A stretch of 40,000 nt of DNA from contig NZ_CP026681.1 of NCBI RefSeq assembly GCF_002949735.1, positions 5,660,771 to 5,700,770 on the forward strand, read 5' to 3'. A model generated the notes under the pieces. That model saw nothing but the letters and a program-made list of their open reading frames with translations. It searched no databases and was not told where the DNA came from. Positions 15,647 to 34,717 of the stretch are shown in pieces. The DNA comes from Nostoc sp. 'Peltigera membranacea cyanobiont' N6 (GTDB lineage: Bacteria; Cyanobacteriota; Cyanobacteriia; Cyanobacteriales; Nostocaceae). Numbering within the stretch: position 1 is the first letter of the stretch; each line of letters opens with the position of its first letter. The position numbers and the translations under genes are program-made.

Positions 15647-16036
15647 ATGCCTAAATGGAAACTAGTAACAGAATTTACATTTGATAGCGCCCATTACATT
15701 AAAGATTATGATGGGCCATGTGGTAGGATGCACGGGCACAGTTACAAAGTGCGAATTGAGGCAACATCATCGAAGCTACACTCTTCACAATATTGTCCCC
15801 ATCCAGTTATGGTTGCTGATTTCAAAACCTTACGCTGGGCTAAACAAGACGTTACAAAAGGCGGGCTAGATCATTGTGTTCTCAATGAGGTATTGCCTCC
15901 TGAGTATGAAACGACAGCGGAGATGATTGCCAAATACATCTATGACGTAACTAAGAAGCAAGTGCCTTCTGATGTGCAGCTAAAAGTTGCAGTATCAGAA
16001 ACCTCCAATTCTTGGGTAGAGTATGAAGATGACTAA
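15647..16036 (+). CDS. queD: 6-carboxy-5,6,7,8-tetrahydropterin synthase (QueD/PTPS family)
   Basis: EFTFDSAHYIKDYDGPCGRMHGHSYKVRIE, then LDHCVLNEV, TAEMIAKYIY and VAVSETSN. These are collinear with E. coli QueD motifs. Confidence 0.9.
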   Translation: MPKWKLVTEFTFDSAHYIKDYDGPCGRMHGHSYKVRIEATSSKLHSSQYCPHPVMVADFKTLRWAKQDVTKGGLDHCVLNEVLPPEYETTAEMIAKYIYDVTKKQVPSDVQLKVAVSETSNSWVEYEDD

Positions 16037-18203
16037 ATCACCCTTAACAAAACCCTTGGTTTCAACTAGCACAATTTCATGCCCTCGTATACTAATTATT
16101 ACTTCTTGTACTGGAAAAAAGCTTCATAACCCAACAAATCAGCTGACAATAGAAGATTTTAAAGACACAGAGAGATTAAAAGAACGCACACAATCACTTT
16201 CAGAATTCTCTTGTCCGTCTGGCCAGATGTACACAGGGCTGCAACATCTACGGCTAATGGAGGGGGTGGATATCCTGCGATCTGCCCTTGGCGGCAGCGC
16301 TTCGCTATCGCATTTTGGAAAAGAAGCAGTGGATGTAAAAATCATTTCAGCAGGTTATGGGCTAATCCCGGAAGACAAAGCGATCGTTCCCTACTCTGTC
16401 ACCTTTAATTCGATGAAGAATGATGAAGTCTATTCGTGGGGGAATTATCTCAGAATCCATGAAGATTTTCAACAGGAAATTGTCGGATATGATTTAATAT
16501 TTGTCTTACTTGGGGATAAATACCTGCGTACTTTAAAGCTACCAGTTAAGACTCATTCCCACCAAACTTTCATTTTTTTTGCTTCAAATAAAAGTATAAA
16601 TTATATAGATTCAGGTAATGCCAAGCTATTAACTTTAACTCTTTCCAATAAGTCTGCATCGCGTTTTAGCTGTGCCTTAGTGGGTTTAAAGGGGCATCTG
16701 CTAAAGCTGATTGCTACTGAAGCCAGCAGAGTTTCACATTTATTGGAAAGTATATATAATAATCCAGAAACATTAGAAGAACTTCTAAATAAACAACCAA
16801 ATCCGTTAGAACTACCTCTTGGAATTTCATTTTCAACGGAGAGGAAATTAAATTTTCAGAATAAAAGCCATAGAAAAAGTAAATATACAGAAGAAGAGTT
16901 ATGTTCTATTCTAAAATTACCAGTTGCAGTTAATCAGCATTTAAAAATGCAATATTTTATTCCTGAATGGGATGATAAAGTAGATGCTGGATATGACTTT
17001 TTACAGGATAAATTTAGTCCTAATCGTAAGGCTTGCAAAGATGACATTTATGCTCATGAAGAAAAAATATATGAAAAGCCCAACTATGACGGTATTTTAG
17101 TATCTAAGATAGTTGTTGATAAGAGAAAATCCAAAAGAAATGATATAGAAGCAGCAGGAGGCATCCAAAAATATTTAAAATTCTCAGGAGAAATTATGGG
17201 GGATTGTGGAGCTTTTGGATATATCAAGCAGCCAGAACCTCCATATAATACTATAGAAATTTTAGATTATTATCAGCGGCTAGGCTTCCATTATGGGGTA
17301 AGTATTGACCACTTAATTGTTGGTCCATTTGCACAGCCTGGAATTAGAGAAGAACGTTACGATCTTACTTTGCGAAACGCAGAGGAATTTATATCAAAAC
17401 ACCAAAAATTTGGATATACATTTACCCCTATTGGTGTCGCTCAAGGTTGGAGTCCTGAAACTTATGCTGAGGCAGTAAAAAAACTGGTTGAAATGGAATA
17501 TGACTATATTGCTATAGGAGGAGTTGCCAGGACACCAACCATAGAAATTCTAGAAATATTGAAAGAAGTTTATCAACATTTAACATCCAAAACTAGATTA
17601 CATTTATTTGGAGTAGGACGTATTGATGCTCTTCCTTATTTCCGCCATTTGGGGGTAACTAGTTTTGACTCAGCAAGCCCATTACGTAAAGCTTGGTTTG
17701 ATGCAGTAGAGAATTATCATACTTTAAGTGGTAAAGCTTACGCTGCTGTGCGTATTCCTTTTGTAGATAAGCAGTCACAACGAATTAAACATTTGTTATC
17801 GTCAGGTTATGAACGTGAAACTCTCAAGCAGCTTGAGCAAGAAGCATTAAAAGCTATTCGGGAATATGATAAAGGCAATATATCACTAGATGAATCTCTT
17901 AAGAAATTACTTGCTTACGATGAGTTATTAGAATTACCTCGCGACGGTATAGTAAACCCGACAGCTAAAGCTAGGCGTTTAAGACAACACACTCAATTGT
18001 ATAGGGAATTATTAGAAGTAAAACCTTGGCAGGAATGTGAGTGTAAAATCTGTCAAAACCCAGACTGTAGAGTAGAAACAATTATTTTTCGTGGTAATGA
18101 CCGTAATCGTAGACGTGGTTTTCACAACACTTATGTATTTTATAAGCGGTTTCGAGAATTTCTGAATGCTGAAAATTGTAATATTGATAGTACGAAAGAG
18201 TAA
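16023..18203 (+). CDS. dpdA: fusion protein: N-terminal YaaA/DUF328-like (or DUF6884-like) domain plus C-terminal TGT-fold DNA transglycosylase-like (DpdA-like) domain
   Basis: N-terminal half: ILIITSCTGKK, MYTGL, IISAGYGLIPEDKAIVPYSVTF and FVLLGDKYLRTL parallel YaaA's [35 protein letters not shown] and NLASDEYFKSV. C-terminal half: YFIPEWDD, GDCGAFGY (TGT DSGGFQ), IAIGGVAR (GGLSVGE), VTSFDSASP (catalytic Asp segment), and the zinc site CECKIC...GFHN (CxCxxC...H). The ORF overlaps the queD stop by 8-14 nt. Confidence 0.7.
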   Translation: MKMTKSPLTKPLVSTSTISCPRILIITSCTGKKLHNPTNQLTIEDFKDTERLKERTQSLSEFSCPSGQMYTGLQHLRLMEGVDILRSALGGSASLSHFGKEAVDVKIISAGYGLIPEDKAIVPYSVTFNSMKNDEVYSWGNYLRIHEDFQQEIVGYDLIFVLLGDKYLRTLKLPVKTHSHQTFIFFASNKSINYIDSGNAKLLTLTLSNKSASRFSCALVGLKGHLLKLIATEASRVSHLLESIYNNPETLEELLNKQPNPLELPLGISFSTERKLNFQNKSHRKSKYTEEELCSILKLPVAVNQHLKMQYFIPEWDDKVDAGYDFLQDKFSPNRKACKDDIYAHEEKIYEKPNYDGILVSKIVVDKRKSKRNDIEAAGGIQKYLKFSGEIMGDCGAFGYIKQPEPPYNTIEILDYYQRLGFHYGVSIDHLIVGPFAQPGIREERYDLTLRNAEEFISKHQKFGYTFTPIGVAQGWSPETYAEAVKKLVEMEYDYIAIGGVARTPTIEILEILKEVYQHLTSKTRLHLFGVGRIDALPYFRHLGVTSFDSASPLRKAWFDAVENYHTLSGKAYAAVRIPFVDKQSQRIKHLLSSGYERETLKQLEQEALKAIREYDKGNISLDESLKKLLAYDELLELPRDGIVNPTAKARRLRQHTQLYRELLEVKPWQECECKICQNPDCRVETIIFRGNDRNRRRGFHNTYVFYKRFREFLNAENCNIDSTKE

Positions 18204-18252: not shown

Positions 18253-19080
18253 ATGAATATTGAACATAAGTTCCTTCCAGTATTTTCAGTAGACTGGTTA
18301 GGTTTATTCAATAGATTAAGGAATTTACAAGGTAATTACGGTATCTTGGCACCTATCTCATCTAACAAAAGTCTTTTAAGAGATATCCGTAATTTTAATA
18401 AACCTTTTTTTATAGATAGTGGCGTTTTTGGTAATCAAGATTTTCCTTGGTATTATGAAACATATTCTGAATACTTTTATAATCGTTGGGTACGTAAACG
18501 AAAATTTGCTTCTGAACAACATTTGCGGCATAAAATCAGAGAATATCTAGAACGCTGCGATCAATTTTCGCCTGATTTTATTTTTACACAAGATATTTTT
18601 GGAGAGCCATTACTATCACTTCATTTAGCTAGATTAACTTGGGAAGAGTATTGGCAAAAGCCAAGGAAATATACTTTGATTGGTGTTGTTCAAGTAGGAT
18701 ATTCAATTTATAATTGGCAACAAAAGTTGGTTCCTCAATTAAATTCTTTTCCTCCTCATTATGATTCACCCAAAAGTTTTTTAACTTCTTTGATTAGTGT
18801 TTATCGGGATATTGGTTATGATTACATCGCCTTGGGCGGATTGTTGAAAGTTGATAAAACTAGAACTACAGGCTTAAAATTTGGTTTGTCTGTAGAGCAA
18901 CTTGATGAACTATTAGCTTGGAGCCGACCAGAATTTGTCTTGGGAGGACTGTCGTTAACCCGAACAGAAGTGTTGAGAAAACACAATGTCTGGGCAGATT
19001 CTACTGGTTGGTTGTGGTGGAACGAGCAATATGACAGCAAGTTTCGTAACAGGAATGGTTTCCAAGAAGTTTTAATGTAG
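18253..19080 (+). CDS. second, short TGT-fold (DpdA-like) paralogue lacking the C-terminal zinc site
   Basis: FFIDSGVFGN (DSGGFQ-like), YIALGGLLKV (GGLSVGE-like) and VWADSTGW (FDSxxP-like Asp). The protein ends without a CxCxxC...H motif. Confidence 0.5.
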   Translation: MNIEHKFLPVFSVDWLGLFNRLRNLQGNYGILAPISSNKSLLRDIRNFNKPFFIDSGVFGNQDFPWYYETYSEYFYNRWVRKRKFASEQHLRHKIREYLERCDQFSPDFIFTQDIFGEPLLSLHLARLTWEEYWQKPRKYTLIGVVQVGYSIYNWQQKLVPQLNSFPPHYDSPKSFLTSLISVYRDIGYDYIALGGLLKVDKTRTTGLKFGLSVEQLDELLAWSRPEFVLGGLSLTRTEVLRKHNVWADSTGWLWWNEQYDSKFRNRNGFQEVLM

Positions 19081-19485
19081 CTACTATTTGTTATTTATCC
19101 AGTACTTTTACTGATTTCTGTGTTTAGAACAATAAATTATTGGTTTTTCTTTTTAAGGAAAGCATAATAAATATATACTTATCTACCTCTGGGTGCCTAC
19201 TGGTAAATTTATTGTGATGCAAATTGCTTTCTTACAAACCAAGCTGCAAAAATTAGCAAATTGGAAAATATATGGTGACAAGTTAGTTTGTGACTCACCT
19301 TTTACCACAGTAGTAGGACACCTAGAGTTATGCTGTTGCCTAAGTTTAGATTATGCTAGGCTCCGCGTTAACGGTGTCTCTCTGTTAGAGAAGCTATCTT
19401 GGAAGAAGCGAATAGCACGCGGATACGAGACGCTATGTGCGTGCTACAGGAAGGTTAATGCTAACGTACTTAGTGGACTTGGAGT

Positions 19486-22400
19486 ATGATAACACTTGGT
19501 TCGTTGGTACGTTCCCGAAACAACAGCTTGGGCATAGGGAAGGTAATCGATATATCTGATACCCAGGCAAATGTTGAGTATTTTTGCTCAGTTGGGCAAC
19601 GGATAGAAAAAAGCTTACCCTTAAGTTCGCTATCTCAGTTGAAACTAGAGCGCCAAACTCGATGCTATATTTACCCGGAAAGCCAAGAAGCATGGCTGAT
19701 TGGCAGAATTTACGAGTGGGATGAGGAACTTTATCAGTATCGCATTGACTTACCTGATAAAAAGACGATCGCAGTTAGCGAAGAACAAGTATACGTGCGT
19801 TGCAATTTACCTCAAGCAGACCCCATCGAGACTCTAGCAATGAAGGGGCAAGAAACGCCCTATTTTCACGATAGACGCTTTGCTTTTGTTAAATGCTTAA
19901 TTTTACAACGCGCTGTCAGTCGGGGAATGACGGGATTAATTTCCGCCAATATTAAGCTTTATCCACATCAAGTTGAAGTTGTCCGTCGTGTACTCGAAGA
20001 TCCGATTCAACGATATTTATTAGCGGATGAAGTTGGACTGGGAAAAACCATCGAAGCTGGTGCTATTCTTCGTCAATATTTATTAGATGAACCTTCTGGA
20101 CGTGCGGTAGTGCTAGTTCCGCAATATTTACTGGAACAATGGCAGCAGGAATTAGAAAATAAGTTTTACATCTCCCACTTTCTCAAACGGGTAGCAGTGC
20201 TGGCGGTTGAGGATATCCACAAAATCAACCCAAAAGCGAATATTGGCTTGCTAATTTTAGATGAAGCACACCACATTGCAGCAATGGCGACTTCTAAGGA
20301 TACAACTGTGCTACAGCGTTTTGAGACTTGCAAAAATATTGCCCATAAAAGCGATCGCCTGCTTCTACTCTCGGCTACCCCGGTTCTCAACCACGAGCAG
20401 GATTTTCTCGCCATGCTGCATCTGCTCGATCCGACAACCTATAAACTTGATGACTTAGCAGGTTTTCGTGAAAGGGTAGTAAAACGCCAAGATATTGGTC
20501 GAATTCTCCTGTCATTTAAAGAAGGTGCAAACCCTTTCGTCTTGAAAACTAATCTCAAAAATCTCCGTAACCTGTTTGCTCAAGATAACTATTTACTGGA
20601 ATTGGCTGACAATCTAGAAAATAGTTTACAAGCAAAGGCTGGCGATACAGTTGAAATTGTCAGGGCAATTCGTATCCATATTAGCGATACCTACAGACTT
20701 CACAGAAGGATGCTTCGCAATCGTCGTGCTTCTGTAGAAGATGTAATTTTTGACCGTAATATTACACTGAGAACTGAGTATGATTTAGATGAGCGATCGC
20801 CTGACATCCACGAACTAATTGAAGAGTGGCGTGATGTAGCTCCTGATGACAAACAATATCACCACATTTTTTTATTGTTTTTCCGTGCTTCTGGTACTTG
20901 GCTGGGTATTTTAAAACAGGTAATTCAAGCACGTTTAAGTAGTGAGACAGCGCTGCGGGAGGGTTTCCCTCCGCAGGCGACTGCGTTCCCCGAAGGGGTT
21001 CTCGAAGAGTACACGAAGGGTATATCCACTGCGGAATTAATTCAGGAGTTTGGCGCTGATAGTGTTCGCATCCTGACTGAAACTCCTAAATTTGCTGGGG
21101 AAGCAGAGATTTTGCAAAGCCTACTGCAAATTATAGAACAACCTTCAGAGGATGGCGATCGCCTTGAATTACTCAAGACAGTTATCCTCTATCAACTCTG
21201 CGAACCTTTAAAATTACAATCCTTGAAATCCAACCTCCCTAAATTGCTTGCAGAGGTTCAAAAACGGCTAAAAAGACCGATGCCGGGAGATAGTCTGCCC
21301 AAAATTGTTATATTTACCAGTTTTGTGCAAACTTGCGCTGAAATTGTCCGTTATTTGAGCGATCGTTTTGGTGAGGGGACTATCGTCAGTCATCAAGTTG
21401 GACAAACTCCCTCTCAAGTAGAGGAGAACTTAAATCGGTTTAAAAAAGACCCCAAATGCTTTATTTTAGTTTGCGACTCCTCCGGCGAAGAAGGTCGTAA
21501 CTTACAATTTACCAACTACATGATATGTTTTGACTTGCCTTGGTCGCCAAATCGCCTAGAACAAAGAATTGGTAGGATAGATCGGATTGGTCGTCTATTG
21601 AAAGTTGAGTTTACAGTATTTGCTGGCGTAGACTTACCCGATAGTCTCCATGATGCATGGTATCGCTTATTAAAAGAAGGGTTTAATATCTTTAGACAAT
21701 CTATTGCTAGTCTCCAATTTTATGTAGATGAAAAATTACCTGTATTAGCAGAAATATTGTTTAAATCGGGTGCAAATGGACTATTAGAAAGTATAGAAGT
21801 AATTCAAAAAGAAATTGAGCAGGAACAAGTCAAAATTAGCGAACAGAACGCCCTAGATGAAATTGATGCTCTGGATGAGAATGCTACCCAATATTTTCAA
21901 GCTTTAGACGATTATGATGCCCGTCATCAGGAAATCCAGCAAGTAACTGAAGATTGGATTTGTGGTGCGTTGGGATTTGAGTCAATTACTAATCCTAATT
22001 TATCGGCACTAAAGCGTTATAAACCTACCGGAAATACATTAATTCCAGCAAATGATTTAAGCAGCAATTTTGCACGGGTTTTAGAAGAATTTGGGACTTT
22101 TAACCGTAGGGTAGCAAATCAACAGCTTGGTGCAAAACTCTACCGCATTGGTGAAAAATTTGTAGACGCACTATCATCTTATATTCATTGGGACGACCGG
22201 GGTCAAGCCTTTGCTATGTGGCGAGTTGCAGAAACTTGGGATTCTGGGGAAGGTGAAGAGTGGTATGGTTTCCGATTGAATTACGTTATTGAAACAAATT
22301 TAACGAATTACAAAAACACCACAAAAGATAAAACTTTGCAAAGACGCGTAGATGGGTTATTCCCTCCAATTGTAGAAAGTGTATTTATTGATGCACGATA

Positions 22401-22869
22401 TGAACCAATGTGTGCGGTTGAAGATGAAACACTATTAAATATCTTGCAACGTCCTTATAATGGCAAGGGCGGTAAATATCGAGATTACAACTTAGCCAAA
22501 AGTCGTTTATCTATTCTTGATAATTTTATTGAGCCTAGCAGTTGGCAAGAATTTTGCCATCAGACGCGTGACACATCTTTAGAATTACTCAGTCAGCGTC
22601 CTGAATTTATTTCATTATGTGAAAATAGCGCCATCCGTGCTGGACAAAAATTAGGTAAGAGACTAGACCAATTGCGCTTGCGTCTCAACCGACTTACTAA
22701 CCAAGAGCGTATTTCTAATAACGTACTGGAGCAAGAACTCAATAACGAAATGGCATTAAACCAAGTAATTATCGAAGGAATTCGTCATCCTACCATTCGT
22801 CTTGATTCTGTTGGTTTTATTATCGTTTCTGGGCGACCTCCAGCTAAATCTGAGGAGGATGATTTATGA
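19486..22869 (+). CDS. dpdE: SNF2/RapA-family helicase, DpdE-like by position
   Basis: Motif I LLADEVGLGKTIEAG, motif II LILDEAHHI, motif III LLLSATP, motif V GEEGRNLQF, motif VI RLEQRIGRIDRIG. Confidence 0.8.
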   Translation: MITLGSLVRSRNNSLGIGKVIDISDTQANVEYFCSVGQRIEKSLPLSSLSQLKLERQTRCYIYPESQEAWLIGRIYEWDEELYQYRIDLPDKKTIAVSEEQVYVRCNLPQADPIETLAMKGQETPYFHDRRFAFVKCLILQRAVSRGMTGLISANIKLYPHQVEVVRRVLEDPIQRYLLADEVGLGKTIEAGAILRQYLLDEPSGRAVVLVPQYLLEQWQQELENKFYISHFLKRVAVLAVEDIHKINPKANIGLLILDEAHHIAAMATSKDTTVLQRFETCKNIAHKSDRLLLLSATPVLNHEQDFLAMLHLLDPTTYKLDDLAGFRERVVKRQDIGRILLSFKEGANPFVLKTNLKNLRNLFAQDNYLLELADNLENSLQAKAGDTVEIVRAIRIHISDTYRLHRRMLRNRRASVEDVIFDRNITLRTEYDLDERSPDIHELIEEWRDVAPDDKQYHHIFLLFFRASGTWLGILKQVIQARLSSETALREGFPPQATAFPEGVLEEYTKGISTAELIQEFGADSVRILTETPKFAGEAEILQSLLQIIEQPSEDGDRLELLKTVILYQLCEPLKLQSLKSNLPKLLAEVQKRLKRPMPGDSLPKIVIFTSFVQTCAEIVRYLSDRFGEGTIVSHQVGQTPSQVEENLNRFKKDPKCFILVCDSSGEEGRNLQFTNYMICFDLPWSPNRLEQRIGRIDRIGRLLKVEFTVFAGVDLPDSLHDAWYRLLKEGFNIFRQSIASLQFYVDEKLPVLAEILFKSGANGLLESIEVIQKEIEQEQVKISEQNALDEIDALDENATQYFQALDDYDARHQEIQQVTEDWICGALGFESITNPNLSALKRYKPTGNTLIPANDLSSNFARVLEEFGTFNRRVANQQLGAKLYRIGEKFVDALSSYIHWDDRGQAFAMWRVAETWDSGEGEEWYGFRLNYVIETNLTNYKNTTKDKTLQRRVDGLFPPIVESVFIDARYEPMCAVEDETLLNILQRPYNGKGGKYRDYNLAKSRLSILDNFIEPSSWQEFCHQTRDTSLELLSQRPEFISLCENSAIRAGQKLGKRLDQLRLRLNRLTNQERISNNVLEQELNNEMALNQVIIEGIRHPTIRLDSVGFIIVSGRPPAKSEEDDL
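20941..21018. repeat. GC-rich short dispersed-repeat-like element embedded in-frame in the SNF2 helicase ORF
   Basis: gagacagcgctgcgggagggtttccctccgcaggcgactgcgttccccgaaggggttctcgaagagtacacgaag has an imperfect hairpin, ctgcgggaggg-ttt-ccctccgcag (20953-20976). It encodes SETALREGFPPQATAFPEGVLEEYTK. Its composition is unlike the rest of the gene. Confidence 0.45.
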
Positions 22870-25415: not shown

Positions 25416-26320
25416 GTGTACTCAAAGAACCTCTCGCTACACCCAGTAGAGTTAGAGGCATTTTTAGATACTTATTACAAAAAAAAGGACAAAAGGAGAA
25501 AAGAGAAGTTTTAGAAAAAATTCTTTCTCCTGATGAACTTGTGAAAGACGCGCCTTCTGGTCGCCCTATGTTCCGTAAAACAATCAATCAAATAAAAAAT
25601 AGAATCGTCAATGGAGTTCACAATATAGGTCTTTTGATTGAAGAGGAAGATGAAATAGCGATAAATCCAAGTCTTACCGAGGATTCTATAAATCCTCAAA
25701 TTGGTGACCAATTATTACCTAATACACTAGCTACCCTATTTTTTGCCTCTGGTAATACAGATGAGGAAGACTTTGGTCTTGTTTGTGCTTGGTACTTGGC
25801 ACAAAATATTTATGATGCTCCTGGAAATTGGGAAGCGATTCAAAATCAGGTCAGTGAACAACAAGTTGGTGAGTTACTAAGAATGACGAATAGCACTCTT
25901 TACGGTCAAATGGATGACTGGATGTGCTACATGGGTTTAGCTTGGGGCCATGCTTTGGGAGGAAAAAGAGTAACTGTTCCTGACCCTACGCTTTATATAA
26001 AACGAAATTTGAAGAATTTATTCAATGATCAGGTTGGTGCAAAACTTCTCATTCGAGAATTTATTGATAGATTAGCAAAAAAATGCCCTCTATTTGAAAC
26101 AGGTAAGTTTCGAGAAATAATTGAAATAAATATTGGTGGCCGTCAACTTAATTATTTATCTACTAGCACTGCGTTTGCTTTGTTTCGCTTACGAGATGAA
26201 GGTTATATCCAGCTTAAAAGAGAATCTGATGCTGACCTAATGATTCTACCAAAAGCGAATAACCAAGTCGATGATGATGGGCGAATTTCTCATATTACTT
26301 GGCAAGGAGAGAACTCATGA
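25412..26320 (+). CDS. hypothetical protein in the DpdG position
   Basis: ATGA start/stop overlaps at both ends tie it to the neighbouring genes. No motif recognised. Confidence 0.5.
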   Translation: MSVLKEPLATPSRVRGIFRYLLQKKGQKEKREVLEKILSPDELVKDAPSGRPMFRKTINQIKNRIVNGVHNIGLLIEEEDEIAINPSLTEDSINPQIGDQLLPNTLATLFFASGNTDEEDFGLVCAWYLAQNIYDAPGNWEAIQNQVSEQQVGELLRMTNSTLYGQMDDWMCYMGLAWGHALGGKRVTVPDPTLYIKRNLKNLFNDQVGAKLLIREFIDRLAKKCPLFETGKFREIIEINIGGRQLNYLSTSTAFALFRLRDEGYIQLKRESDADLMILPKANNQVDDDGRISHITWQGENS

Positions 26321-29300
26321 CTTTTGAAAAGTTTGTTTGCTGGAATTTGGAAAGAGTTCGCCGGGTTATGGATGTGGAAGCAACCCAACCCCCAAATCAT
26401 CTGTTTTTGGCGACTCACCATCCCATCGCCATGTATCGCCAAGAACTTATAAAGGCATCATCGCAGATTGAATACGATGAGCAGAAATTCCTCAAGGATT
26501 TTCTCGCAGAAAAAGATTTTGCTTTCGTGCCAGTTTTAGGCGGTTCTGGTACAGGTAAATCGCACCTAATACGTTGGTTGGCGGCTAATATAAAATCGAC
26601 GGAGAAACGCAAGGTATTATTGATTCCTAAAATCGGTACAAATCTGAAAGATATTGTCAGTCTTATCCTCGAAGGTATGGAGGGAGAAAGATTTGATGAA
26701 TACCGGGAAAGAGTAAAACGAGCAACTAATACCTTAACTGAAACTCAGGCGCGGGTACAACTTCTCAATCAACTGGCAGCAGCAGTAGGTGATGATGGGA
26801 AACGTGATAGAACGCAACTAACTGATGAGCATAATTACCTCATTGATGAGCTTGATTCTCTTCTATATGACCCATTTTTTCGGGAACATTATTGGCTTCG
26901 AGATAATGGTATTATTCATCGCTTAGTCATCCATATTTTGGGACGTAGAGATACGGTAGAGATTGTCGAAGAAAGGCGAGAATTTTCTATTGATGACTTG
27001 CCTAATAACCTTTTATATTTGGAAAAAGCTGGAGAAAGGTCTCGAAGTTTTTATACTGAGCTTTGGAGTAGCGATGAAATCAAGAAAATAACCGTAGACT
27101 GGTTGAACCAGCACCTAAATGAAGCCATTACCCAAGTGTTGAATTTGGGTCGGGAAGACCTGCGAAGATTAATGTGCGAAGTTCGGGAGATATTGGCAGA
27201 ACAAAATGTCGAATTAGTTCTGTTAATTGAAGACTTTGCGAAGTTACAAGGTATAGACCTAGAAGTATTAGAAGCAGTTTTGGCACGACCTCAACAATTA
27301 GGAAGTAAACCAATGTGTGCCATCCGCACGGCCTTGGCTTGTACTACAGGTTATTTTGAGAGTTTAATTGATACAGTAAAACAGCGTCTTACCTTCAGTG
27401 TTAATCTTGATGTTGGCACAGTTGGGGATCAATCTTTAATTACCCAAGATGATATTCAAGACTTTGTTGCTAGATATCTGAATACAGTTCGTTTAGAAGA
27501 TAAAGTTATTCTTGATTGGGCAACTTCTAACAATCACGAAGATAATTTTCAAAATGAACCTCTTGTAAGTGCTTGTAGCGATTGCGAACACCGCGAAGCT
27601 TGTCACGCTGGTTTTGAAAATGTGAATGGAATAGGTTTATATCCTTTTACACCCAAAGCTTTAGAGCAAATGCAGCATAGAGTTAACACTGGTAATTTTA
27701 ATCCGCGAATTTTGATTAAAGATGTGTTGAAGTACACTCTTGAAAATGGATTAGATAATATTAAAAAAGGGCTTTTTCCTTCTGTAAGCCTGCGAGAGCA
27801 TTTCGGTAAAATGCGGCTGAGTGCGATGTTACAGGCAGACATAAAAGCTAAAGATCCCCAAAACTTTGACCGTCGTGAAATACTAATAGATTTATGGACT
27901 GACAGCAATGAGCTTTGTGATTTACCCATACAAATTCACACAGCTTTAAATCTACCTCCGCTTGGAGTCAAAATTAAGCAGACTGAAATTAAGCGTGTTA
28001 TACCACAATCTCAAATTAGTCATGTACTACCACGAGTCACAGAAGCTGTAAAAAGCTATCAAACGACACGTGAAGAAACAGAAGATGTTCAGAAAGAAAT
28101 TCTTCCAAATAAACTAGCAGAACAAATAAAGCTTTTAGATAATTGGAACAATCAAGAAATTTTACATCAAGACTTAGGAAAACCACTACGCGAATTTATT
28201 TATCCTGCAATTATTGAAAGAATTAATTGGGATTCAGAGATTTTGCTTCAAGGAAGTTTTGCCAGATCCTCCAAGTCACGGGAGGATGTTGATAAAGGTA
28301 ATAAAATTTTTAAACAAAGAAATATAGTCTTTTATAGTCCAAGGGTTACAAGAGAAACAATTGCTGGAGTGAAGTTATCACTTCCGCTTAATCCTGATGA
28401 TGTGGACGAGTTTCGTACAACTGCGATCGCCTTTCAAGGTATCCTACTATATAGCCATTATAAAAACTGGAAGTTTGAAAATGGCGATCGCTATTTCCGT
28501 ACCTACACTCGACAATTAGAAAAATGGAGCCAGTACGTCTTAGAGCAAATTCGCCTTTACCCTCGTGAGTTTGGAGAAGCTTGGAACCCAGTACCAGCAG
28601 CAGTAGAATTACTGGCGATAACCTCCACGATGGCGGGACATCCTACAAATTCCTTGGAAGACGTGATTAATGCTTTGTTTTTAGACGTAGAAAATAATAA
28701 CGATGAAAATCGTGCTTTAAGTTGGAAACAATTATTTAAATCACTCAAAAAATATCGTAAAGACTTATTAGAAATTGTTCAAAGTCGAATTGCTTGTACC
28801 AAAGGAAGCTCAACCCAATTTCAAATTATTGATGCAATCCAAATTATCGAACCTCTAGAGAAGGTTAGAAAAACTTGGCAGCCTCAATGTGAAATTCCCG
28901 AAGATATCCGCGATAATAAACTTTTCCAGGATATCTACAAAGCACGCCAGCAAGTAGATGAACTCCTAGAGAAAGCTATCGAAGAAGAGTACGAACGACA
29001 GTTAGATATCTATCAGCGTCTAATATCCGAATTGGGAGAAAACATTAAGACAAAGGATGTTATTGACGCTCTCAAAGCTGCAATGGAAGCTGCACAAGAT
29101 GCAGCTGTATTTCGTGGACAAAAAGACTTTGATGGTATGACAAATGTGTTAAATAAATTCATGCCAAGAGCAATTAAAACTTATAGAGACACAATGAAGC
29201 GTGTACAAACGGAGAAAGAAAATCCAGAAAGTAACATCGGTAAATTACTTCAGTACTTGAGTGAAGATTATCAAAATGTCATTACTACTTCTTCAGAATT

Positions 29301-29472
29301 CATTGACAACACTAATGATTTTTTGCATACTTCGATTCTTGAAGTAAAAAGTCGTATTGTGGAGTTAGAACAATCTGGTGGTACAACGAGAGAATCTAGT
29401 CATAAAGAAATTCGTGATGGTTTAGCTAATTTACGGATTCTAATGAATGAAATTAAAGGAGATACAAAATGA
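26317..29472 (+). CDS. large P-loop NTPase in the DpdH position
   Basis: Walker A VLGGSGTGKSHL, Walker B-like VLLIEDFAK, and a Cys/His cluster CSDCEHREACH. I prefer the ATG at 26317 (RBS aaggagag; ATGA overlap with the upstream stop) to the TTG at 26299 given in the ORF track. That gives 1051 aa, against 1057 aa from the track's TTG. Confidence 0.6.
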   Translation: MTFEKFVCWNLERVRRVMDVEATQPPNHLFLATHHPIAMYRQELIKASSQIEYDEQKFLKDFLAEKDFAFVPVLGGSGTGKSHLIRWLAANIKSTEKRKVLLIPKIGTNLKDIVSLILEGMEGERFDEYRERVKRATNTLTETQARVQLLNQLAAAVGDDGKRDRTQLTDEHNYLIDELDSLLYDPFFREHYWLRDNGIIHRLVIHILGRRDTVEIVEERREFSIDDLPNNLLYLEKAGERSRSFYTELWSSDEIKKITVDWLNQHLNEAITQVLNLGREDLRRLMCEVREILAEQNVELVLLIEDFAKLQGIDLEVLEAVLARPQQLGSKPMCAIRTALACTTGYFESLIDTVKQRLTFSVNLDVGTVGDQSLITQDDIQDFVARYLNTVRLEDKVILDWATSNNHEDNFQNEPLVSACSDCEHREACHAGFENVNGIGLYPFTPKALEQMQHRVNTGNFNPRILIKDVLKYTLENGLDNIKKGLFPSVSLREHFGKMRLSAMLQADIKAKDPQNFDRREILIDLWTDSNELCDLPIQIHTALNLPPLGVKIKQTEIKRVIPQSQISHVLPRVTEAVKSYQTTREETEDVQKEILPNKLAEQIKLLDNWNNQEILHQDLGKPLREFIYPAIIERINWDSEILLQGSFARSSKSREDVDKGNKIFKQRNIVFYSPRVTRETIAGVKLSLPLNPDDVDEFRTTAIAFQGILLYSHYKNWKFENGDRYFRTYTRQLEKWSQYVLEQIRLYPREFGEAWNPVPAAVELLAITSTMAGHPTNSLEDVINALFLDVENNNDENRALSWKQLFKSLKKYRKDLLEIVQSRIACTKGSSTQFQIIDAIQIIEPLEKVRKTWQPQCEIPEDIRDNKLFQDIYKARQQVDELLEKAIEEEYERQLDIYQRLISELGENIKTKDVIDALKAAMEAAQDAAVFRGQKDFDGMTNVLNKFMPRAIKTYRDTMKRVQTEKENPESNIGKLLQYLSEDYQNVITTSSEFIDNTNDFLHTSILEVKSRIVELEQSGGTTRESSHKEIRDGLANLRILMNEIKGDTK

Positions 29473-30170
29473 TCATAGAAAAATCACGGAAACTAGTTGA
29501 GTTATCTCAACTCAAAAAAACTCTGCAAAAATCTTTAGATGATCTTCAAAATGTTCAAACTAGGCAAAAGCAAATAACTGAGGCTGTTGCAGCTATTCAA
29601 CCACTTGTAGAAGTATTAAAAGCTTTTCGTCAAAGAGGTATTACTATTGATTTGACTCATAAGGCAGATAAACTCTTAAATTTTATTATCAACATAGAGG
29701 ATGAATTTAGTAGCAATCCTGATTGGATTCTTGATCCGGAAAATTTTCAAGGCAATATTTTAAAATCCCAGGTAGTATACCTAAAAACTCAGCTAAAGGA
29801 GCAATTGAGTGAATCTTGGAAAAGCTACCGAGATCAAAAAATGCCTAGCACTAATAATGAAGTACTCAAGGTTCTGGCTAAATTAGAAGCTTTTAAAAAA
29901 ACCGTTTTGCAAATTCAGATTATAGATAGAGATATAAAAAACGTTACTTATCCTAAAAATAATGCTGAATTTGAAATGTATGAACTTAAAATAGAGCAAT
30001 TAAACTACTCTTGGAAGAGTCTCAAGTCTGATGAATTTCCAGAAGCCGTATCGCATTTCCTCCAAGCGGCATCTGATCAAGGCTCGCCTTTAACTCTTTT
30101 AACTCCAGAAGTTCAAGATTGGATTAATCAAAATGGCATTTCTGATTCTTTTAAAATTCGCTTGATTTAA
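29469..30170 (+). CDS. hypothetical coiled-coil protein in the DpdI position
   Basis: ATGA overlap with the upstream gene. The sequence is heptad-rich and K/E/Q-rich. No motif recognised. Confidence 0.5.
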   Translation: MIIEKSRKLVELSQLKKTLQKSLDDLQNVQTRQKQITEAVAAIQPLVEVLKAFRQRGITIDLTHKADKLLNFIINIEDEFSSNPDWILDPENFQGNILKSQVVYLKTQLKEQLSESWKSYRDQKMPSTNNEVLKVLAKLEAFKKTVLQIQIIDRDIKNVTYPKNNAEFEMYELKIEQLNYSWKSLKSDEFPEAVSHFLQAASDQGSPLTLLTPEVQDWINQNGISDSFKIRLI

Positions 30171-30193
30171 AATAAAGTAAGGGCAGGGCAAGG

Positions 30194-33100
30194 GTGACTA
30201 CCAACTGGGATAAAATAATTAGAGAATTTTTAGATAAGTTGGAACGCCAGGAAGTTCAACTTTTGACGTGGGGAATTGTTGATGGTGGATTTTCTGAAGA
30301 TGAAATTGAAGAACTTGCGGAAAATTTTCTGAATACTTGCGAGATTGATGAAGATGTTTGGGATTTTATAGACCAAATCCTCGATCGCAAATTGTTGTTT
30401 GAGTTCAACCTCAGAGGCGATCGCCTTTTCCGCACCCGAATGGCGGAAGCGGTGAGATTATTTGCCCGTCTTCGCCAACTGTTCCCGAATAATAATTGGC
30501 AAACATCTCCTACCTTAGTTGCTGATTATCGCCTACAAATCCGTCCGAGAATTTATCCCAAAAGGTATATTACGCCAGAAGCAGTAATTCAGCAGTTGGA
30601 AGCAGACAAACTGCTAACTCCCATACAGCAAAAAGCCGTTACAGCGATACTGCGATCGCCATTGCGCGGTGAGGTTCAACTTGCAGATTTCCAGCTACGC
30701 GCTACAAGCCGGATGCTGCGGGATTTAAACAGTACAAAAAGTCGTGGGATGATTGTCTGTGCTGGGACAGGAACGGGGAAGACTTTATCTTTTTACCTAC
30801 CAGCATTAGCGCATATTGCCGCTTTCTTGAAAAAGGATGAGTATTGGAGTAAAGGACTGGCAATTTATCCCCGTAACGAACTTCTCAAAGACCAATTTTC
30901 TGAAACCTATCAAGAAGCACGTCGTCTCGATGCTGTCCTCAAAGCAGAAGGTAAGCGTAAAATTCTCATTGGTGCATTTTTTGGCTTAACTCCCAGAAGC
31001 GCAATTTTGGATCGGGTGCAGGATAAATGGAAAGCTGAAAGTAGTGGGTTTACTTGTCCTTACCTGCGGTGTCCCAGATGTGAAGGTGCGCTATCTTGGC
31101 GACGGGCTGATGTGGAAGCTGGTAGAGAAAAACTTTCTTGTCTCAACCCATCCTGTAGTGCTGTTATCCAAGAAGATGAAGTAATTTTAACACGCGATCG
31201 CATGGCGAAAACTCCTCCAGACCTAGTTTTTACCAGCACAGAAATGCTAAATCGATCTATGGGAGACTCCCGTTACGGTCATGTATTTGGCATCGCGGCG
31301 GCGAAAAAGCCTCAGATAGTTTTGTTGGATGAAGTGCATACTTATACAGGTATCCACGGCGCACAAGTTGCTTACCTGCTGCGGCGTTGGCAGAAAATCA
31401 TTCACAAGAAAGTCCAATTTACTGGACTTTCGGCAACTCTAGAAAGTGCAGCAGAATTTTTCAGTCAACTTACAGGTTTAAACCCTGGTTCAGTGGAAGA
31501 AATTTCTCCTGGTGAAGACCAAATTGCTGAAGGAATGGAGTATCAATTGGTTCTCAGGGGCGACCCAGTATCAGGAACAAGTCTTTTATCTACCAGCATC
31601 CAAACGGCGATGCTGCTGCGGCGTGTACTCGACCCATCTGAAGACCCCCCTAGCAAAGGTTTCTATGGTTCCCGTGTTTTCGCCTTCACTGATGACTTAG
31701 ATGTTACCAATCGCTTATTCCATAACCTTTTGGATGCTGAAGGTCGAGACAGTTGGGGTCGTCCCTTGCGAGGAAGACAGCCATTAGCAGCTTTGCGATC
31801 GCATGGTGCAACTAATGGTAGAGAAAGGCTGATTGCCGCACAATCCTGGCTATTGTGTGAAGAAATCGGTCACGGTTTGCAACTTCCTTTGAATATTGGG
31901 CGCACTAGTTCCCAAGATACCGGAGTTACGCCAAATGCAGATGTGATTGTGGCTACTGCATCTCTGGAAGTGGGATTTAACGACCCAGAAGTTGGAGGTG
32001 TCATCCAGCACAAAGCACCGCGAGATATGGCATCTTTCCTGCAACGCAAAGGACGGGCGGGACGACGCAGAACTATGCGACCTTGGACGGTGGTAGTGCT
32101 TTCTGATTACGGACGGGACAGAATCGCCTATCAAGGCTACGATATGCTGTTTAACCCAGTTTTAGAAAAGCGATCGCTTCCCATCGCCAACCGCTATGTT
32201 ATTCGCATTCAAGCGGTTTTCGCCTTTATGGATTGGGTTAGACGGCAATTAGCGGCAACTATAGGAAGTGTCTGGAGAGACTTTGCTACTACTGATTTAT
32301 ACTTAATTAACCGTCAGCGACTAGAAATAAAACTGATCAAAAACATCCTGGAAACAGAAGCAGGACAACGCAACTTAGAAACATATCTGCAATCAGCACT
32401 ACACCTTACCAAAGATGAAGTCGAAGCAATTCTTTGGGAACCACCGAGATCATTGATGATGGCGGTGCTTCCGACTTTGCTACGGCGTTTAGAGTCTGGT
32501 TGGAAACGCCTTCCCATTCAGCAAGATGAATCAGACAAAGACTATCAAACCCGTGACCCGTTACCTGATTTTGTTCCCCCGAATTTATTTAGTGACCTGC
32601 TGTTGCCAGAAGTAACGATTACTACACCAGCACAGACGCGCAACAGTGAGCCGGATATTAACCCCATGCCCATTATCCAAGCCCTGAAAACCTTTACTCC
32701 AGGCAGGGCGACGCGCCGTTTCGGGGTGCAGCATATCTATGCAACTCACTGGATTGCACCGCCAGATTTACAACAAAGAGAACAAGAATTGCCTGTAGAA
32801 GACTATTGTGCCGAGTTTGAAGAAGCAGGGTATTTTCAATTATGGCAAGATGGGCAAGTTGTAGATATTCGCTGTATTCGACCTTGGGCAATTAATCCTA
32901 CCCAAGTTCCGCCTAATATTTCAATTACCTCTAACGCCCAATTGGAATGGCGCAGTCAAATTATACCACCCGACTTGGGAATAAAACTCGAACTGCCTCA
33001 AGGTTCCCCGTGGTGCAAAATTATCACAGAAGTTTGTTGTTTTACTCACACTCAACAATCGCCCGTGGAAGTGCGGCGGTTTGCGATCGCCTCTCATGCT

Positions 33101-34717
33101 AACATCCGCTTCGATAATGGCCAGGAACTCGATACGACAATTCGCTTCACCCAGAGACAGGATCGTAGTCCTGCGGCTGTAGGATTTGCCCAATCTGTTG
33201 ACGGTTTAGTATTTCGCTTTTGTATTCCGCCCAATTTCAGCATCAGTCCCAACGATTCCAATCAAGAGAAAATTCGGGCGTTTCGCACGGCATATTTCCG
33301 ATATCGGGTATTGACAGATACCAGATTGTGTGAGTTAACAAATGTCTTTCAACGAGAGTGGCTTTATCAAATATATATATCGATGCTGACCGCCCGTGCC
33401 TTGACAGCCCAAATCTCTCTACGTGAAGCTTTTGAGACGCTTTTGGGTGAAAATATGGGTCAAGAAATGGCAAGGGTTCTGGACAATATCTTTCAAACCT
33501 TGAATGTCGAAGAAACCCTACTGGAAGAAGGGGAATCTGCACCGGAACAAATTCAGGGACGGCAGAGGGTACATGATAGGTTGCTGGCACTTGCCAACGC
33601 AGATATCATCCAAACTATATTAAATGATCTTGCACCGATTCTCTGGTCAGAACCTGATGAAGAGTGGCACTCTTGGGCAGCATTACGTTTTAAAGCGACC
33701 TTGGGAGGGGCGCTGCTGGATGCTTGCGGGCAATTGTGTCCCCACTTTGATTTGGGCGACCTGATTTTAGATATCGATCCTGGCCCGCGTCCACCAGATG
33801 CACCTGCTATTTCAGAGGGAGTAGAGGAAATTTGGATAACTGAGTCTACCATTGGTGGCGGTGGGGTGATTGAGGAAATCTTGCGGCGCTATGCTGCTGA
33901 TCCGGCGAATTTTTTCCGATTGGCGGGGAGTGCGTTGTCACCTGCGGATTTTGAGATTGTGGACTCGGAACTGACGCGGTTACTGGAGTTAACCCAAACC
34001 AGTGCAGATGTTGCCGATGCAATGGCAGATGTGCGGTTAGCCGAAGGACATGGTGAATTAAAACAAGCAAGCGATCGCCTCCGTAAAGTCCTGTCCTCTG
34101 AGGGTATTTTGGTAACGCATCCGGTGATGACTGCAATAAACGCACGGGTTTTGCGTCCTGGAAGTACGCCGGAAACCGATAAACTACTGCTGGATTTGAT
34201 TCGTTTGTGGCATCAAGAAGAAGCGCGTTTAGGTATTGAAATTGATGCGCGGGTGTTTGCTTATGTCGCCAGCAACGATGACCAGTTGGATCGGGCATTG
34301 TTGCATCTTGGTTTAGTGCAGCCTAATCCCTATTGGCGGTTTCAAGTGATTTATGGGCTGTTGTGGGCGAGGGGAAATATTATTCGTTCTCGCGCCTTAT
34401 CTTCCTATAATCCTTTTGCTGTGGTTGCCGATGCTGATAGAGAAATTTTACTGGATGTTTTGCAAGTCGGCGATCGCACAGTTTGGCTGAATGAACCCAA
34501 CTGGCGAGAACAGGTGGAGGAAGCATTTAAGCAAGGTGCATCGGTTTCGCTGATAGCGCCTCCTGATGCGAGAGGAGATTTAAAGTCAGCGATTTTGAGT
34601 TTAGCAGTCGAACCAATGGAACTTGGGTTTTTGCAGGTTTACCCATTGATGGAGGGGGTGCAGAGGTATCCGCGAGGGTTTGGGGTGAGGCTACGAGTCA
34701 GGGAGCTAGTGCAGTAA
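30194..34717 (+). CDS. dpdJ: very large DEAD/DEAH-box helicase with inserted zinc ribbon and DUF1998-like C-terminal region, DpdJ-like by position
   Basis: Motif I VCAGTGTGKTLSFYLPAL, zinc ribbon CPYLRCPRC...CLNPSC, motif II VLLDEVHTY, GLSATL, and ASLEVGFNDPEVGGVIQHKAPRDMASFLQRKGRAGRR. The C-terminal region TLGGALLDACGQLCPHFDLGDL...ESTIGGGGVIEEI resembles the DUF1998 core of MrfA/DrmB-type proteins. GTG start. Confidence 0.75.
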   Translation: MTTNWDKIIREFLDKLERQEVQLLTWGIVDGGFSEDEIEELAENFLNTCEIDEDVWDFIDQILDRKLLFEFNLRGDRLFRTRMAEAVRLFARLRQLFPNNNWQTSPTLVADYRLQIRPRIYPKRYITPEAVIQQLEADKLLTPIQQKAVTAILRSPLRGEVQLADFQLRATSRMLRDLNSTKSRGMIVCAGTGTGKTLSFYLPALAHIAAFLKKDEYWSKGLAIYPRNELLKDQFSETYQEARRLDAVLKAEGKRKILIGAFFGLTPRSAILDRVQDKWKAESSGFTCPYLRCPRCEGALSWRRADVEAGREKLSCLNPSCSAVIQEDEVILTRDRMAKTPPDLVFTSTEMLNRSMGDSRYGHVFGIAAAKKPQIVLLDEVHTYTGIHGAQVAYLLRRWQKIIHKKVQFTGLSATLESAAEFFSQLTGLNPGSVEEISPGEDQIAEGMEYQLVLRGDPVSGTSLLSTSIQTAMLLRRVLDPSEDPPSKGFYGSRVFAFTDDLDVTNRLFHNLLDAEGRDSWGRPLRGRQPLAALRSHGATNGRERLIAAQSWLLCEEIGHGLQLPLNIGRTSSQDTGVTPNADVIVATASLEVGFNDPEVGGVIQHKAPRDMASFLQRKGRAGRRRTMRPWTVVVLSDYGRDRIAYQGYDMLFNPVLEKRSLPIANRYVIRIQAVFAFMDWVRRQLAATIGSVWRDFATTDLYLINRQRLEIKLIKNILETEAGQRNLETYLQSALHLTKDEVEAILWEPPRSLMMAVLPTLLRRLESGWKRLPIQQDESDKDYQTRDPLPDFVPPNLFSDLLLPEVTITTPAQTRNSEPDINPMPIIQALKTFTPGRATRRFGVQHIYATHWIAPPDLQQREQELPVEDYCAEFEEAGYFQLWQDGQVVDIRCIRPWAINPTQVPPNISITSNAQLEWRSQIIPPDLGIKLELPQGSPWCKIITEVCCFTHTQQSPVEVRRFAIASHANIRFDNGQELDTTIRFTQRQDRSPAAVGFAQSVDGLVFRFCIPPNFSISPNDSNQEKIRAFRTAYFRYRVLTDTRLCELTNVFQREWLYQIYISMLTARALTAQISLREAFETLLGENMGQEMARVLDNIFQTLNVEETLLEEGESAPEQIQGRQRVHDRLLALANADIIQTILNDLAPILWSEPDEEWHSWAALRFKATLGGALLDACGQLCPHFDLGDLILDIDPGPRPPDAPAISEGVEEIWITESTIGGGGVIEEILRRYAADPANFFRLAGSALSPADFEIVDSELTRLLELTQTSADVADAMADVRLAEGHGELKQASDRLRKVLSSEGILVTHPVMTAINARVLRPGSTPETDKLLLDLIRLWHQEEARLGIEIDARVFAYVASNDDQLDRALLHLGLVQPNPYWRFQVIYGLLWARGNIIRSRALSSYNPFAVVADADREILLDVLQVGDRTVWLNEPNWREQVEEAFKQGASVSLIAPPDARGDLKSAILSLAVEPMELGFLQVYPLMEGVQRYPRGFGVRLRVRELVQ

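Follow-up and report, generated by a model that had tools for sequence, protein, structure and literature searches.

A cyanobacterial variant of the Dpd island in Nostoc, with a DpdC-type domain fused to DpdA and a predicted barrel-only transglycosylase paralogue

Background

To our knowledge, Dpd is the largest and least understood of the restriction-modification (R-M) systems, and that of Salmonella enterica sv. Montevideo is said to have been treated by Thiaville 2016 and by Yuan 2018. What is known to us of its biochemistry comes from the proteobacterial version. The reference system is the dpdA-K cluster of this organism (Gedara 2023, PMC10164549). A survey of dpd islands made with GATOR-GC (PMC11888242), in which dpdA and dpdB served as anchors, reported a cyanobacterial island "missing dpdC". 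Here we analyse a 40-kb stretch of Nostoc sp. 'Peltigera membranacea cyanobiont' N6 (the whole stretch is called the window throughout), whose positions 15647-40000 are the island portion treated, and for which an original prediction, made from the sequence letters, had proposed a plasmid-borne relative of Dpd with a rebuilt modification half.

The island is a real Dpd, hence a known kind of system, and it exemplifies a separate cyanobacterial variant, marked by a conserved protein of the tRNA-guanine transglycosylase (TGT) superfamily that has no annotation and that we call mini-TGT. The edge of the window and a cargo insertion account for much of what looks odd in the island. We are fairly confident that positions 15647-40000 represent the larger part of a genuine cyanobacterial-type Dpd island on a Nostoc-type plasmid. 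From 5' to 3' the genes are queD, a DpdC-DpdA fusion, mini-TGT, a small open reading frame (ORF) named orf90, dpdE-F-G-H-I-J, a MerR/type IIG R-M cassette, an 89-aa ORF with an HNH gene, and the start of dpdK. Our ORF map reproduced every ORF previously listed, each at the same coordinates, and DpdA, E, F, G, H and J score above the NCBIfam equivalog cut-offs, so that the kinship with Dpd is borne out. As for the rebuilt modification half, the DpdC-DpdA fusion and the second TGT are real; DpdC is nevertheless present as a domain, DpdK is cut by the window edge, and DpdD presumably lies beyond it. Nor is this a one-off rebuild: the arrangement is the usual form of cyanobacterial Dpd, recovered in 41 genome loci by a scan around mini-TGT that took one genome per species and tabulated the dpd components around each locus (handles such as L001 below denote loci).

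queD and the DpdC-DpdA fusion

The first gene (15647-16036; this and all the island genes given below are on the + strand) encodes a 129-aa queD-like 6-carboxytetrahydropterin synthase of the PTPS family, with 99.7 bits to Pfam PTPS (cut-off 22.4) and 75 bits to TIGR03367 QueD, under the cut-off of 89. A queD occupies the same position in many related loci, and the Allocoleopsis homologue was named 6-carboxytetrahydropterin synthase by the annotation pipeline PGAP. The expected overlap with the start of the following 726-aa ORF is there and measures 14 nt. No queC, queE or folE was found among the scanned ORFs of the window. The count of one out of four genes for preQ0 (7-cyano-7-deazaguanine) is therefore right, and what does not stand is the hint of a different product that had been drawn from it: queD alone accompanies 78% of the surveyed dpd islands (PMC11888242), which makes a lone queD an ordinary feature and implies reliance on the host preQ0 pathway.

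The 726-aa protein (16023-18203) is assigned from NCBIfam, PADLOC, Pfam and PDB 7ui4 and consists of an N-terminal DUF6884/DpdC-type domain (about aa 20-196) and a C-terminal DpdA domain (about aa 307-716). The C-terminal half, previously recognised as TGT-like, is DpdA: it scores 460.5 bits to NF041059 (cut-off 200), matches PADLOC DpdA with E 5e-121 and aligns with 7ui4, the S. Montevideo DpdA, with E 2e-82. The tRNA TGT models give 52.6 bits (arcTGT) and 34.9 bits (bTGT), and the large TGT domain sides with the DNA-specific DpdA, at 460 versus 35-53 bits, not with the tRNA-specific enzymes. Taking the catalytic residues from PMC10164549 and mapping them through 7ui4, corrected for a 20-residue tag offset, we found Asp95, Phe99, Asp130 and Asp256 of S. 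Montevideo DpdA at D394, F398, D429 and D549 of the fusion, and His181 replaced by Gln. The C-terminal Cys cluster (CECKIC) is retained in the fused domain.

The N-terminal domain scores 34.0 bits to Pfam DUF6884 (cut-off 30) and matches PADLOC DpdC with E 1.9e-9. It gave no match to the NCBIfam DpdC model; this counts against the assignment, and for this reason DpdC orthology and a product dADG (2'-deoxy-7-amido-7-deazaguanosine) are presumed. The original prediction had found no free-standing DpdC and a DpdA fused to another domain; the fusion is confirmed, and DpdC is not missing, being that DUF6884 domain. Most of the 41 loci have the same fusion, and a few have separate dpdC and dpdA genes. 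The fusion may also account for the "missing dpdC" call in the GATOR-GC survey.

Superfamily assignment of mini-TGT

The gene of mini-TGT (18253-19080, 275 aa) follows the fusion and encodes a divergent protein of the TGT/DpdA superfamily that has no annotation. The two TGT-superfamily proteins that had been proposed, a fused one and a shorter one, are both present; the shorter one is supported by structural comparison, by profile-profile comparison with hhalign and by intermediate sequences, not by libraries of hidden Markov models (HMMs). In fact, whether the query was one sequence or a profile, mini-TGT matched nothing in PADLOC, Pfam (PF01702 included), the NCBIfam TGT and DpdA models or PHROGs, and nothing among the PDB sequences.

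The AlphaFold2 model, built with 40 homologues, has a predicted local distance difference test (pLDDT) score of 85 and a predicted template modelling (pTM) score of 0.85, and the predicted structure is a TGT-like (beta/alpha)8 barrel. When this model was run against the PDB with Foldseek, the top 41 matches were all bacterial TGTs (E 6e-8 to 1e-5). With hhalign, mini-TGT aligned to the DpdA domains of related loci with 94% probability and E 9e-8 over an 'IGVxQ ... YIAxGG' core, and the extended alignment pairs its D55, F59, D108, Q147, G195-L197 and D249 with D394, F398, D429, Gln, GGV and D549 of DpdA. Across 40 sequences, down to about 50% identity, D55, F59, Q147, G195-L197 and D249 are invariant, and all the paired positions are either invariant or at least 90% conserved. 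A profile search of 1.84 billion representatives returned four full-length mini-TGT clusters plus a weak tail (E 1e-9 to 1e-3), whose members keep the motifs DxGxxxDV, AQG, GGLL and D[SY]KGW; all 10 of the tail relatives tested match PADLOC DpdA (E 1e-7 to 3e-14). Three observations weigh against the assignment: the TM-score of the Foldseek TGT matches is only about 0.5, at about 13% identity; S. Montevideo DpdA (7ui4) is outside the top 50 Foldseek matches; and the statistically supported hhalign core comprises only 49 central columns.

The chain stops about 25 residues past the putative nucleophile Asp and has a single invariant Cys, C102, which together indicate that the zinc subdomain (CxCxxC...H) is missing. 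The large DpdA-type DNA-binding insertion is missing as well, so what is left is the barrel core. Judged by sequence and modelled fold, mini-TGT is a barrel-only paralogue in the TGT/DpdA superfamily with predicted catalytic aspartates, base-recognition Gln and GGL. The candidate assignment to a known phage DpdA family was rejected (no PHROGs match, and weak structural matches only in BFVD). Neither the DpdC-DpdA fusion nor mini-TGT is described in the accessible literature on Dpd, phage DpdA, YprA helicases, BREX/BRC and the GATOR-GC dpd survey; an earlier mention elsewhere is possible.

Pseudoenzymes usually lose their catalytic residues. In mini-TGT the positions aligned to the catalytic and base-binding residues of DpdA are invariant or nearly so, over the same 40 sequences, and the motifs are retained even by very distant relatives with a short barrel. 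This invariance argues against a pure scaffold, and mini-TGT is probably catalytic, as far as sequence and model can tell. We consider it unlikely that it is instead a non-catalytic structural partner, similar to QTRT2, scaffolding DpdA or DpdB, although such a role would suit a protein without the zinc subdomain and the large DNA-binding insertion, and would fit the fact that TGT enzymes act as dimers and that eukaryotic TGT has a non-catalytic paralogue (cited in PMC10164549).

Distribution and linkage of mini-TGT

We collected 128 homologues of mini-TGT; all of them are annotated as 'hypothetical' and every one with a named organism is cyanobacterial. The family is close in size to that of cyanobacterial DpdB (132 proteins). 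In 40 of the 41 loci the gene has dpd genes as neighbours, the exception (L045) being a copy of 46% identity at a contig end, with no dpd genes shown. DpdA, mostly as the DpdC-DpdA fusion, is found upstream of it in 33 loci, immediately adjacent in 31 and 1-2 kb away in the other two (L038 and L039). Downstream of mini-TGT, 21 loci have a convergent DpdB of the DndB type at a distance of up to about 1.5 kb, and another 4 have one within 5 kb; in L037 dpdB is directly upstream, co-directional and overlapping mini-TGT. In all, DpdB adjoins mini-TGT or is within 5 kb of it in 26 of the 41. Mini-TGT is a conserved extra component of the cyanobacterial Dpd modification module.

A small-molecule role is disfavoured by how closely mini-TGT is linked to DpdB and to systems that target DNA. 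Precisely, the alternative is that mini-TGT acts on a substrate other than DNA (a nucleoside or nucleotide in precursor supply or salvage, or tRNA) and tunes the 7-deazaguanine pool for DpdA; a barrel with no obvious nucleic-acid-binding extension, on a plasmid that has queD only and depends on the host for precursor supply, would be in keeping with it. We rate it as improbable, since DpdB is a DNA-acting ATPase and overlaps mini-TGT in L037, the distant relatives occur in DNA-targeting defence loci next to HerA-type translocases, and no preQ0 biosynthesis gene except queD was detected beside mini-TGT.

Several of the tail relatives are short TGT-like barrels fused to DUF6884, in either order, so that short barrels are repeatedly found joined to a DpdC-type domain; another tail relative is in a phage-like contig. 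Two such barrel-DUF6884 fusions (L051 6257-7387 and L054 5709-7508) come directly after a DUF87/HerA ATPase, in L051 also with an ORC/Cdc6-SIR2 protein. For the HerA-centred BRC systems with TGT components no DpdC homologue was reported (PMC12839542); the L051 and L054 fusions suggest that a DpdC-type domain can be present, fused, in HerA-linked loci like those of BRC.

Two side observations concern the loci themselves. A 6.7-kb contig (L006, CAZZZY010000340.1), 99% identical to the modification module of the window, is in a metagenome-assembled genome (MAG) labelled 'uncultured Acetobacteraceae'; all other carriers of mini-TGT being cyanobacterial, the label is probably a binning error. In Myxacorys (L038 7737-8759, - strand) a short DpdA-like ORF of 341 aa, with E 3e-44 to the DpdA domain, stands between the fusion and mini-TGT, and this island may encode three TGT-superfamily proteins.

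The restriction genes dpdE-J and orf90

Profile searches of the ORFs at 19486-34717 gave strong matches to DpdE-J, and these matches identify the island as Dpd. PADLOC and NCBIfam agree on every large ORF. The SNF2-type helicase of 1127 aa (19486-22869) is DpdE (NF041062, 1163 bits, cut-off 500; PADLOC DpdE, E 2.5e-233), and the RecQ-like DEAD helicase of 849 aa (22866-25415) is DpdF (NF041063, 1001 bits, cut-off 550; PADLOC DpdF, E 2.3e-228). The 302-aa product of 25412-26320 is DpdG (NF041064, 122 bits, cut-off 80; PADLOC DpdG, E 1e-16). The P-loop ATPase that follows is DpdH (NF041065, 903 bits, cut-off 450; PADLOC DpdH, E 1.8e-139); mechanical ORF listing begins it at TTG 26299, and from ATG 26317, which overlaps dpdG, it covers 26317-29472 and 1051 aa. 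The last and largest, a YprA-family helicase of 1507 aa (30194-34717), is DpdJ (NF041067, 2035 bits, cut-off 800; PADLOC DpdJ, 1714 bits).

Between dpdH and dpdJ lies a 233-aa coiled-coil ORF (29469-30170), which has no PADLOC match and scores 38.9 bits to NF041066 DpdI, below the cut-off of 150; the alignment runs end to end, residues 8-230 against 9-239 of 239, and the ORF is 67% identical to the one in the same slot of the Nostoc C057 plasmid. Its slot and size also fit DpdI, and it is probably a divergent DpdI. The six packed ORFs, for which the dpdE-J order had been proposed, are then DpdE, F, G, H, a divergent DpdI-like protein and J. Their DNA is 88-89% identical to that of the plasmids of Nostoc sp. 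C057 and N. flagelliforme, in which PGAP annotates dpdE, F, G, H, J, K and D.

The 405-nt spacer reported before dpdE exists; it is not empty, as it contains a conserved, small Cys-rich ORF of about 90 aa, orf90 (19217-19489). Mechanical ORF listing begins it at GTG 19193. From ATG 19217 to a stop that overlaps the dpdE ATG, it is kept in L003, L006-L008, L010, L013 and L014 (E 1e-20 to 1e-57), and L003 has an in-frame 3-nt indel; ahead of ATG 19217, an indel breaks the frame. It carries the motifs CDSP, HLELCCC and CAC, had no family match in the profile searches, and is confined to the Nostocales sub-lineage in which dpdE directly follows mini-TGT. A DpdB remnant in the spacer was considered and rejected, the conserved ORF there being unrelated to DpdB. 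ATGA start/stop overlaps join orf90 to dpdE, dpdE to dpdF, dpdF to dpdG, dpdG to dpdH and dpdH to dpdI, and indicate operon-style coupling from orf90 through dpdI.

DpdK, DpdD and the cargo insertion

An ORF starting at 39863 runs off the window end at 40000, and its 46 residues are all identical to the annotated DpdK, a nuclease of the phospholipase D (PLD) type, of the Nostoc C057 plasmid p057_I. Directly upstream of this dpdK 5' end, at 39171-39856, are an 89-aa ORF (39171-39440), likewise common to C057, and an HNH endonuclease gene (39410-39856; Pfam HNH, E 1e-14), whose product is 98% identical to the C057 counterpart. As dpdD comes after dpdK in C057, N. flagelliforme, Amazonocrinis, L058 and L060, synteny places dpdD presumably just beyond the window end. 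The reported lack of DpdD is consequently a truncation effect: dpdK is cut at the window edge and dpdD is the next gene in five relatives.

The segment between dpdJ and dpdK (34845-39042) is outside Dpd, as seen from PADLOC, Pfam, GC content and synteny. It holds a MerR-like helix-turn-helix (HTH) gene (34845-35318), the gene of a 1008-aa type IIG restriction-methyltransferase (35356-38382; PADLOC REase_MTase_IIG, E 6e-72; Pfam Eco57I and N6_Mtase) and a 218-aa ORF with no assigned family (38386-39042). The GC content of the cassette is 0.34, against 0.42 for dpdE-J, and it has no counterpart in L001, L050 and L057; on these two grounds we consider it a cargo insertion, which has displaced dpdK and dpdD past the window edge. 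Apart from this low-GC block at 35-38 kb, the base composition is unremarkable across the window, and no structured RNAs or tRNAs were found in it. In relatives, the dpdJ-dpdK interval is occupied by DUF4365 proteins, by groups of small ORFs or by a protein of 801 aa, and it looks like a cargo hotspot.

The position of DpdB

DpdB, an ATPase of ParB/DndB type carrying a DGQ[QH]R motif, is not present in the window, as the original prediction had noted: tblastn with the Scytonema DpdB gave a best E of 2.4 and no HMM matched. The ParB of the window (8366-9517) was examined as a candidate and rejected, being a partition ParB paired with ParA and not a DGQHR protein. Among the relatives, Aliterella has DpdB between dpdI and the next helicase, and the L031 lineage has it about 2 kb past dpdD, on the opposite strand. 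Three relatives with sequence beyond dpdD (L057, L058 and L060) have DpdB about 2.8 kb past dpdD, again on the opposite strand. Amazonocrinis/Nostoc sp. CENA67 (L010, L057) shares the layout of the window, with queD, fusion, mini-TGT, orf90 and dpdE onward, and its downstream part reads dpdJ, small ORFs, dpdK, dpdD, convergent NACHT and DndB/DpdB genes, an 84-aa ORF and then genes for a helicase of 1655 aa, a PLD nuclease and a protein of 728 aa. The pattern of dpdJ-dpdK-dpdD, NACHT and DpdB recurs in Nostoc 'Peltigera cyanobiont 213' and in a metagenomic contig.

By synteny with these relatives, a convergent DndB-type dpdB rather likely lies just beyond the window, and a second module, with a helicase, a PLD nuclease and a DpdD-like protein, would follow it. 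Three points weigh against such a placement: the lack of DpdB in the window itself; the absence of any DpdB or NACHT remnant after dpdD in the C057 and N. flagelliforme plasmids; and the last 900 nt of the window being closest to the C057 plasmid (99%).

The same data bear on an alternative, in which the plasmid Dpd truly has no DpdB and guanine exchange is driven otherwise, for example with mini-TGT in place of DpdB or in a self-sufficient heterodimer with DpdA, maybe making a different 7-deazaguanine. The 40-kb window has no DpdB, its tail is 99% identical to a plasmid without DpdB after dpdD, and phage DpdAs are not described as requiring DpdB (PMC10516641, in our own reading). DpdB is nonetheless 2.8 kb past dpdD in L057, L058 and L060, one of which demonstrably has the layout of the window; two other seemingly DpdB-less loci carry it elsewhere on the contig; mini-TGT co-occurs with DpdB, and does not stand in for it, in 26 of the 41 loci; and both DpdB-free plasmids have also lost DpdA, DpdC and mini-TGT. 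This makes a DpdB-less system doubtful to us, and given the DpdB past dpdD in three relatives, a DpdB-independent mode, which the predicted different insertion mechanism amounted to, is not established. A truly DpdB-less clade, defined by mini-TGT followed directly by dpdE, was rejected too, since DpdB is elsewhere on the same contigs.

In the plasmids of C057 (L001, about 11950-12460) and N. flagelliforme (L050, about 16950-17460), what is left of the mini-TGT gene is its final ~50 nt, followed by the intact spacer (together corresponding to window 19029-19485) and by dpdE-J-K-D. This remnant is a deletion scar, from which we conclude that both plasmids lost queD, dpdCA and mini-TGT and kept the full restriction operon. 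That the island of the window is likewise a decaying or non-functional remnant, like these restriction-only clusters, is very improbable in our judgement. Close relatives did demonstrably lose the modification module and a foreign R-M cassette does sit between dpdJ and dpdK, but the Dpd ORFs of the window are full-length, the full-length models are matched end to end, the start/stop overlaps are intact and the same gene set is conserved across genera.

Around the dpdB of relatives we also observed a NACHT NTPase between dpdD and dpdB in three of them, and the second module in several (L057 12257-22268; L060; L058; L049 6604-12422), composed of a small ORF and genes for a YprA-like helicase (about 1650 aa), a PLD nuclease and a protein of about 730 aa that resembles DpdD. 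The helicase of this module is 27% identical to DpdJ, and the module is the sole restriction module of the compact islands.

Proposed mechanism

For the evolution of the island, we propose a core cyanobacterial form made of queD, dpdCA, mini-TGT, a convergent dpdB and the helicase/PLD/DpdD-like module, into which an orf90-dpdE...J-K-D block would have been inserted, between mini-TGT and dpdB, in the lineage of the window. As for its working, preQ0 would come from the host queuosine pathway and would be boosted by the island QueD, by analogy with S. Montevideo (PMC10164549). The DpdA domain would then exchange guanine in DNA for preQ0, with D549 as the nucleophile and D394 as the general acid/base, assisted by the DpdB ATPase; the fused DUF6884/DpdC domain would hydrate the nitrile in cis to give dADG; and DNA without the mark would be restricted by DpdD-K.

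Within this scheme, the most likely hypothesis has mini-TGT acting together with DpdA and DpdB: it would be a second transglycosylase subunit with catalysis of its own, or else their obligate partner. One observation tells against it: in L040, L041, L043 and L044 mini-TGT comes after dpdD with no DpdA nearby, and a convergent DpdB is next to it in the three of these with downstream sequence, a layout from which the partner of mini-TGT may be DpdB rather than DpdA. A tentative reading, possible though well short of favoured, goes further and makes cyanobacterial Dpd a two-transglycosylase system, in which mini-TGT, with DpdB as partner, would itself be active as a DNA transglycosylase, placing a 7-deazaguanine at another motif, on another DNA form or with another base than the fusion does; it might even be the minimal, ancestral form. 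If this were true, mini-TGT and its DUF6884-fused, HerA-linked relatives would constitute a new family of barrel-only DNA base-exchange enzymes.

Plasmid context

Upstream of the island are a ParM-like gene, ParB, ParA, an HTH gene and DnaB, and positions 1-15300 are, in pieces, 90-95% identical to dozens of Nostocales plasmids. The plasmid location that had been proposed agrees with these partition genes, with the DnaB nearby and with a backbone common to many Nostoc plasmids. Iterated repeats of 11 nt, CCCCATATAGN, occur upstream of the ParM-like gene (6134-7102, - strand), where there is no ORF, with at least 5 units at 7283-7388 and an inverted copy at 7249-7264; the units at 7283-7388 are a possible parC-type centromere for actin-like partition. 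The DnaB of the window (13133-14506) is 457 aa long and intein-free; that of a closely related Nostoc MAG contig (L003 5077-7554) has 825 aa with an intein (Intein_splicing, LAGLIDADG).

Significance and comparison with known systems

Cyanobacteria carry a distinct and widespread version of Dpd, often plasmid-borne over the 41 genome loci, with DpdC fused to DpdA and a third protein left as 'hypothetical'. Surveys that require separate dpdA, dpdB and dpdC genes will miscount such islands, which probably contribute to the poor transformability of the Nostocales. Should mini-TGT prove catalytic, no smaller TGT-fold enzyme would be known, and one system would have a second activity for exchanging bases in DNA; should it prove an adaptor, the coupling of DpdA to the DpdB ATPase could be explained by it.

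As in the S. Montevideo Dpd, the window has the families DpdA, DpdC (as a domain), DpdE, F, G, H, (I), J and K in the same dpdE-J order, with the catalytic residues of DpdA conserved and queD alongside. It differs from that system in the fusion of DpdC to the N-terminus of DpdA, in the extra mini-TGT after dpdA and in orf90 before dpdE. The cyanobacterial dpdK and dpdD come after dpdJ, behind the cargo hotspot; dpdB is not beside dpdA, being absent from the window and convergent past dpdD in relatives; and the relatives of the window carry the second helicase/PLD/DpdD-like module.

The compact islands of Allocoleopsis PCC 7113 (pMIC7113.07) and Scytonema NIES-4073 (plasmid1) share the module of queD, fusion and mini-TGT with the window, at 64-85% identity. 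Unlike the window, they have no dpdE-I, and mini-TGT is directly followed by a convergent DndB/DpdB, a helicase of about 1660 aa and a PLD nuclease, in Scytonema also by a DpdD-like protein of about 730 aa. On the 26-kb Allocoleopsis plasmid, which is complete, this compact form comprises queD, the fusion, mini-TGT, an unassigned gene, DndB, a helicase of 1672 aa and a PLD nuclease. Where the compact islands have DpdB, helicase and PLD nuclease, the lineage of the window has the dpdE-J-K-D block.

For two cooperating TGT-fold paralogues there is a precedent in the QTRT1/QTRT2 tRNA-guanine transglycosylase heterodimer. QTRT2 lost the catalytic residues and keeps the zinc site; mini-TGT shows the reverse, and its substrate is presumably DNA. 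Phage DpdA families are reportedly also described in Hutinet 2019. The phage DpdAs (Cui 2023, PMC10516641) are, like mini-TGT, shorter proteins of the TGT superfamily, and they are DNA transglycosylases that insert 7-deazaguanines; mini-TGT is set apart from them by the PHROGs and BFVD searches. Its nearest relatives outside cyanobacteria are the TGT components of the HerA/FtsK BRC systems (PMC12839542) and the short TGT-like/DUF6884 fusions, which share its motifs. Unlike mini-TGT, these BRC-type relatives are beside DUF87/HerA or in phage-like surroundings, are unlinked to dpdE-K, and are the ones that the PADLOC DpdA model recognises.

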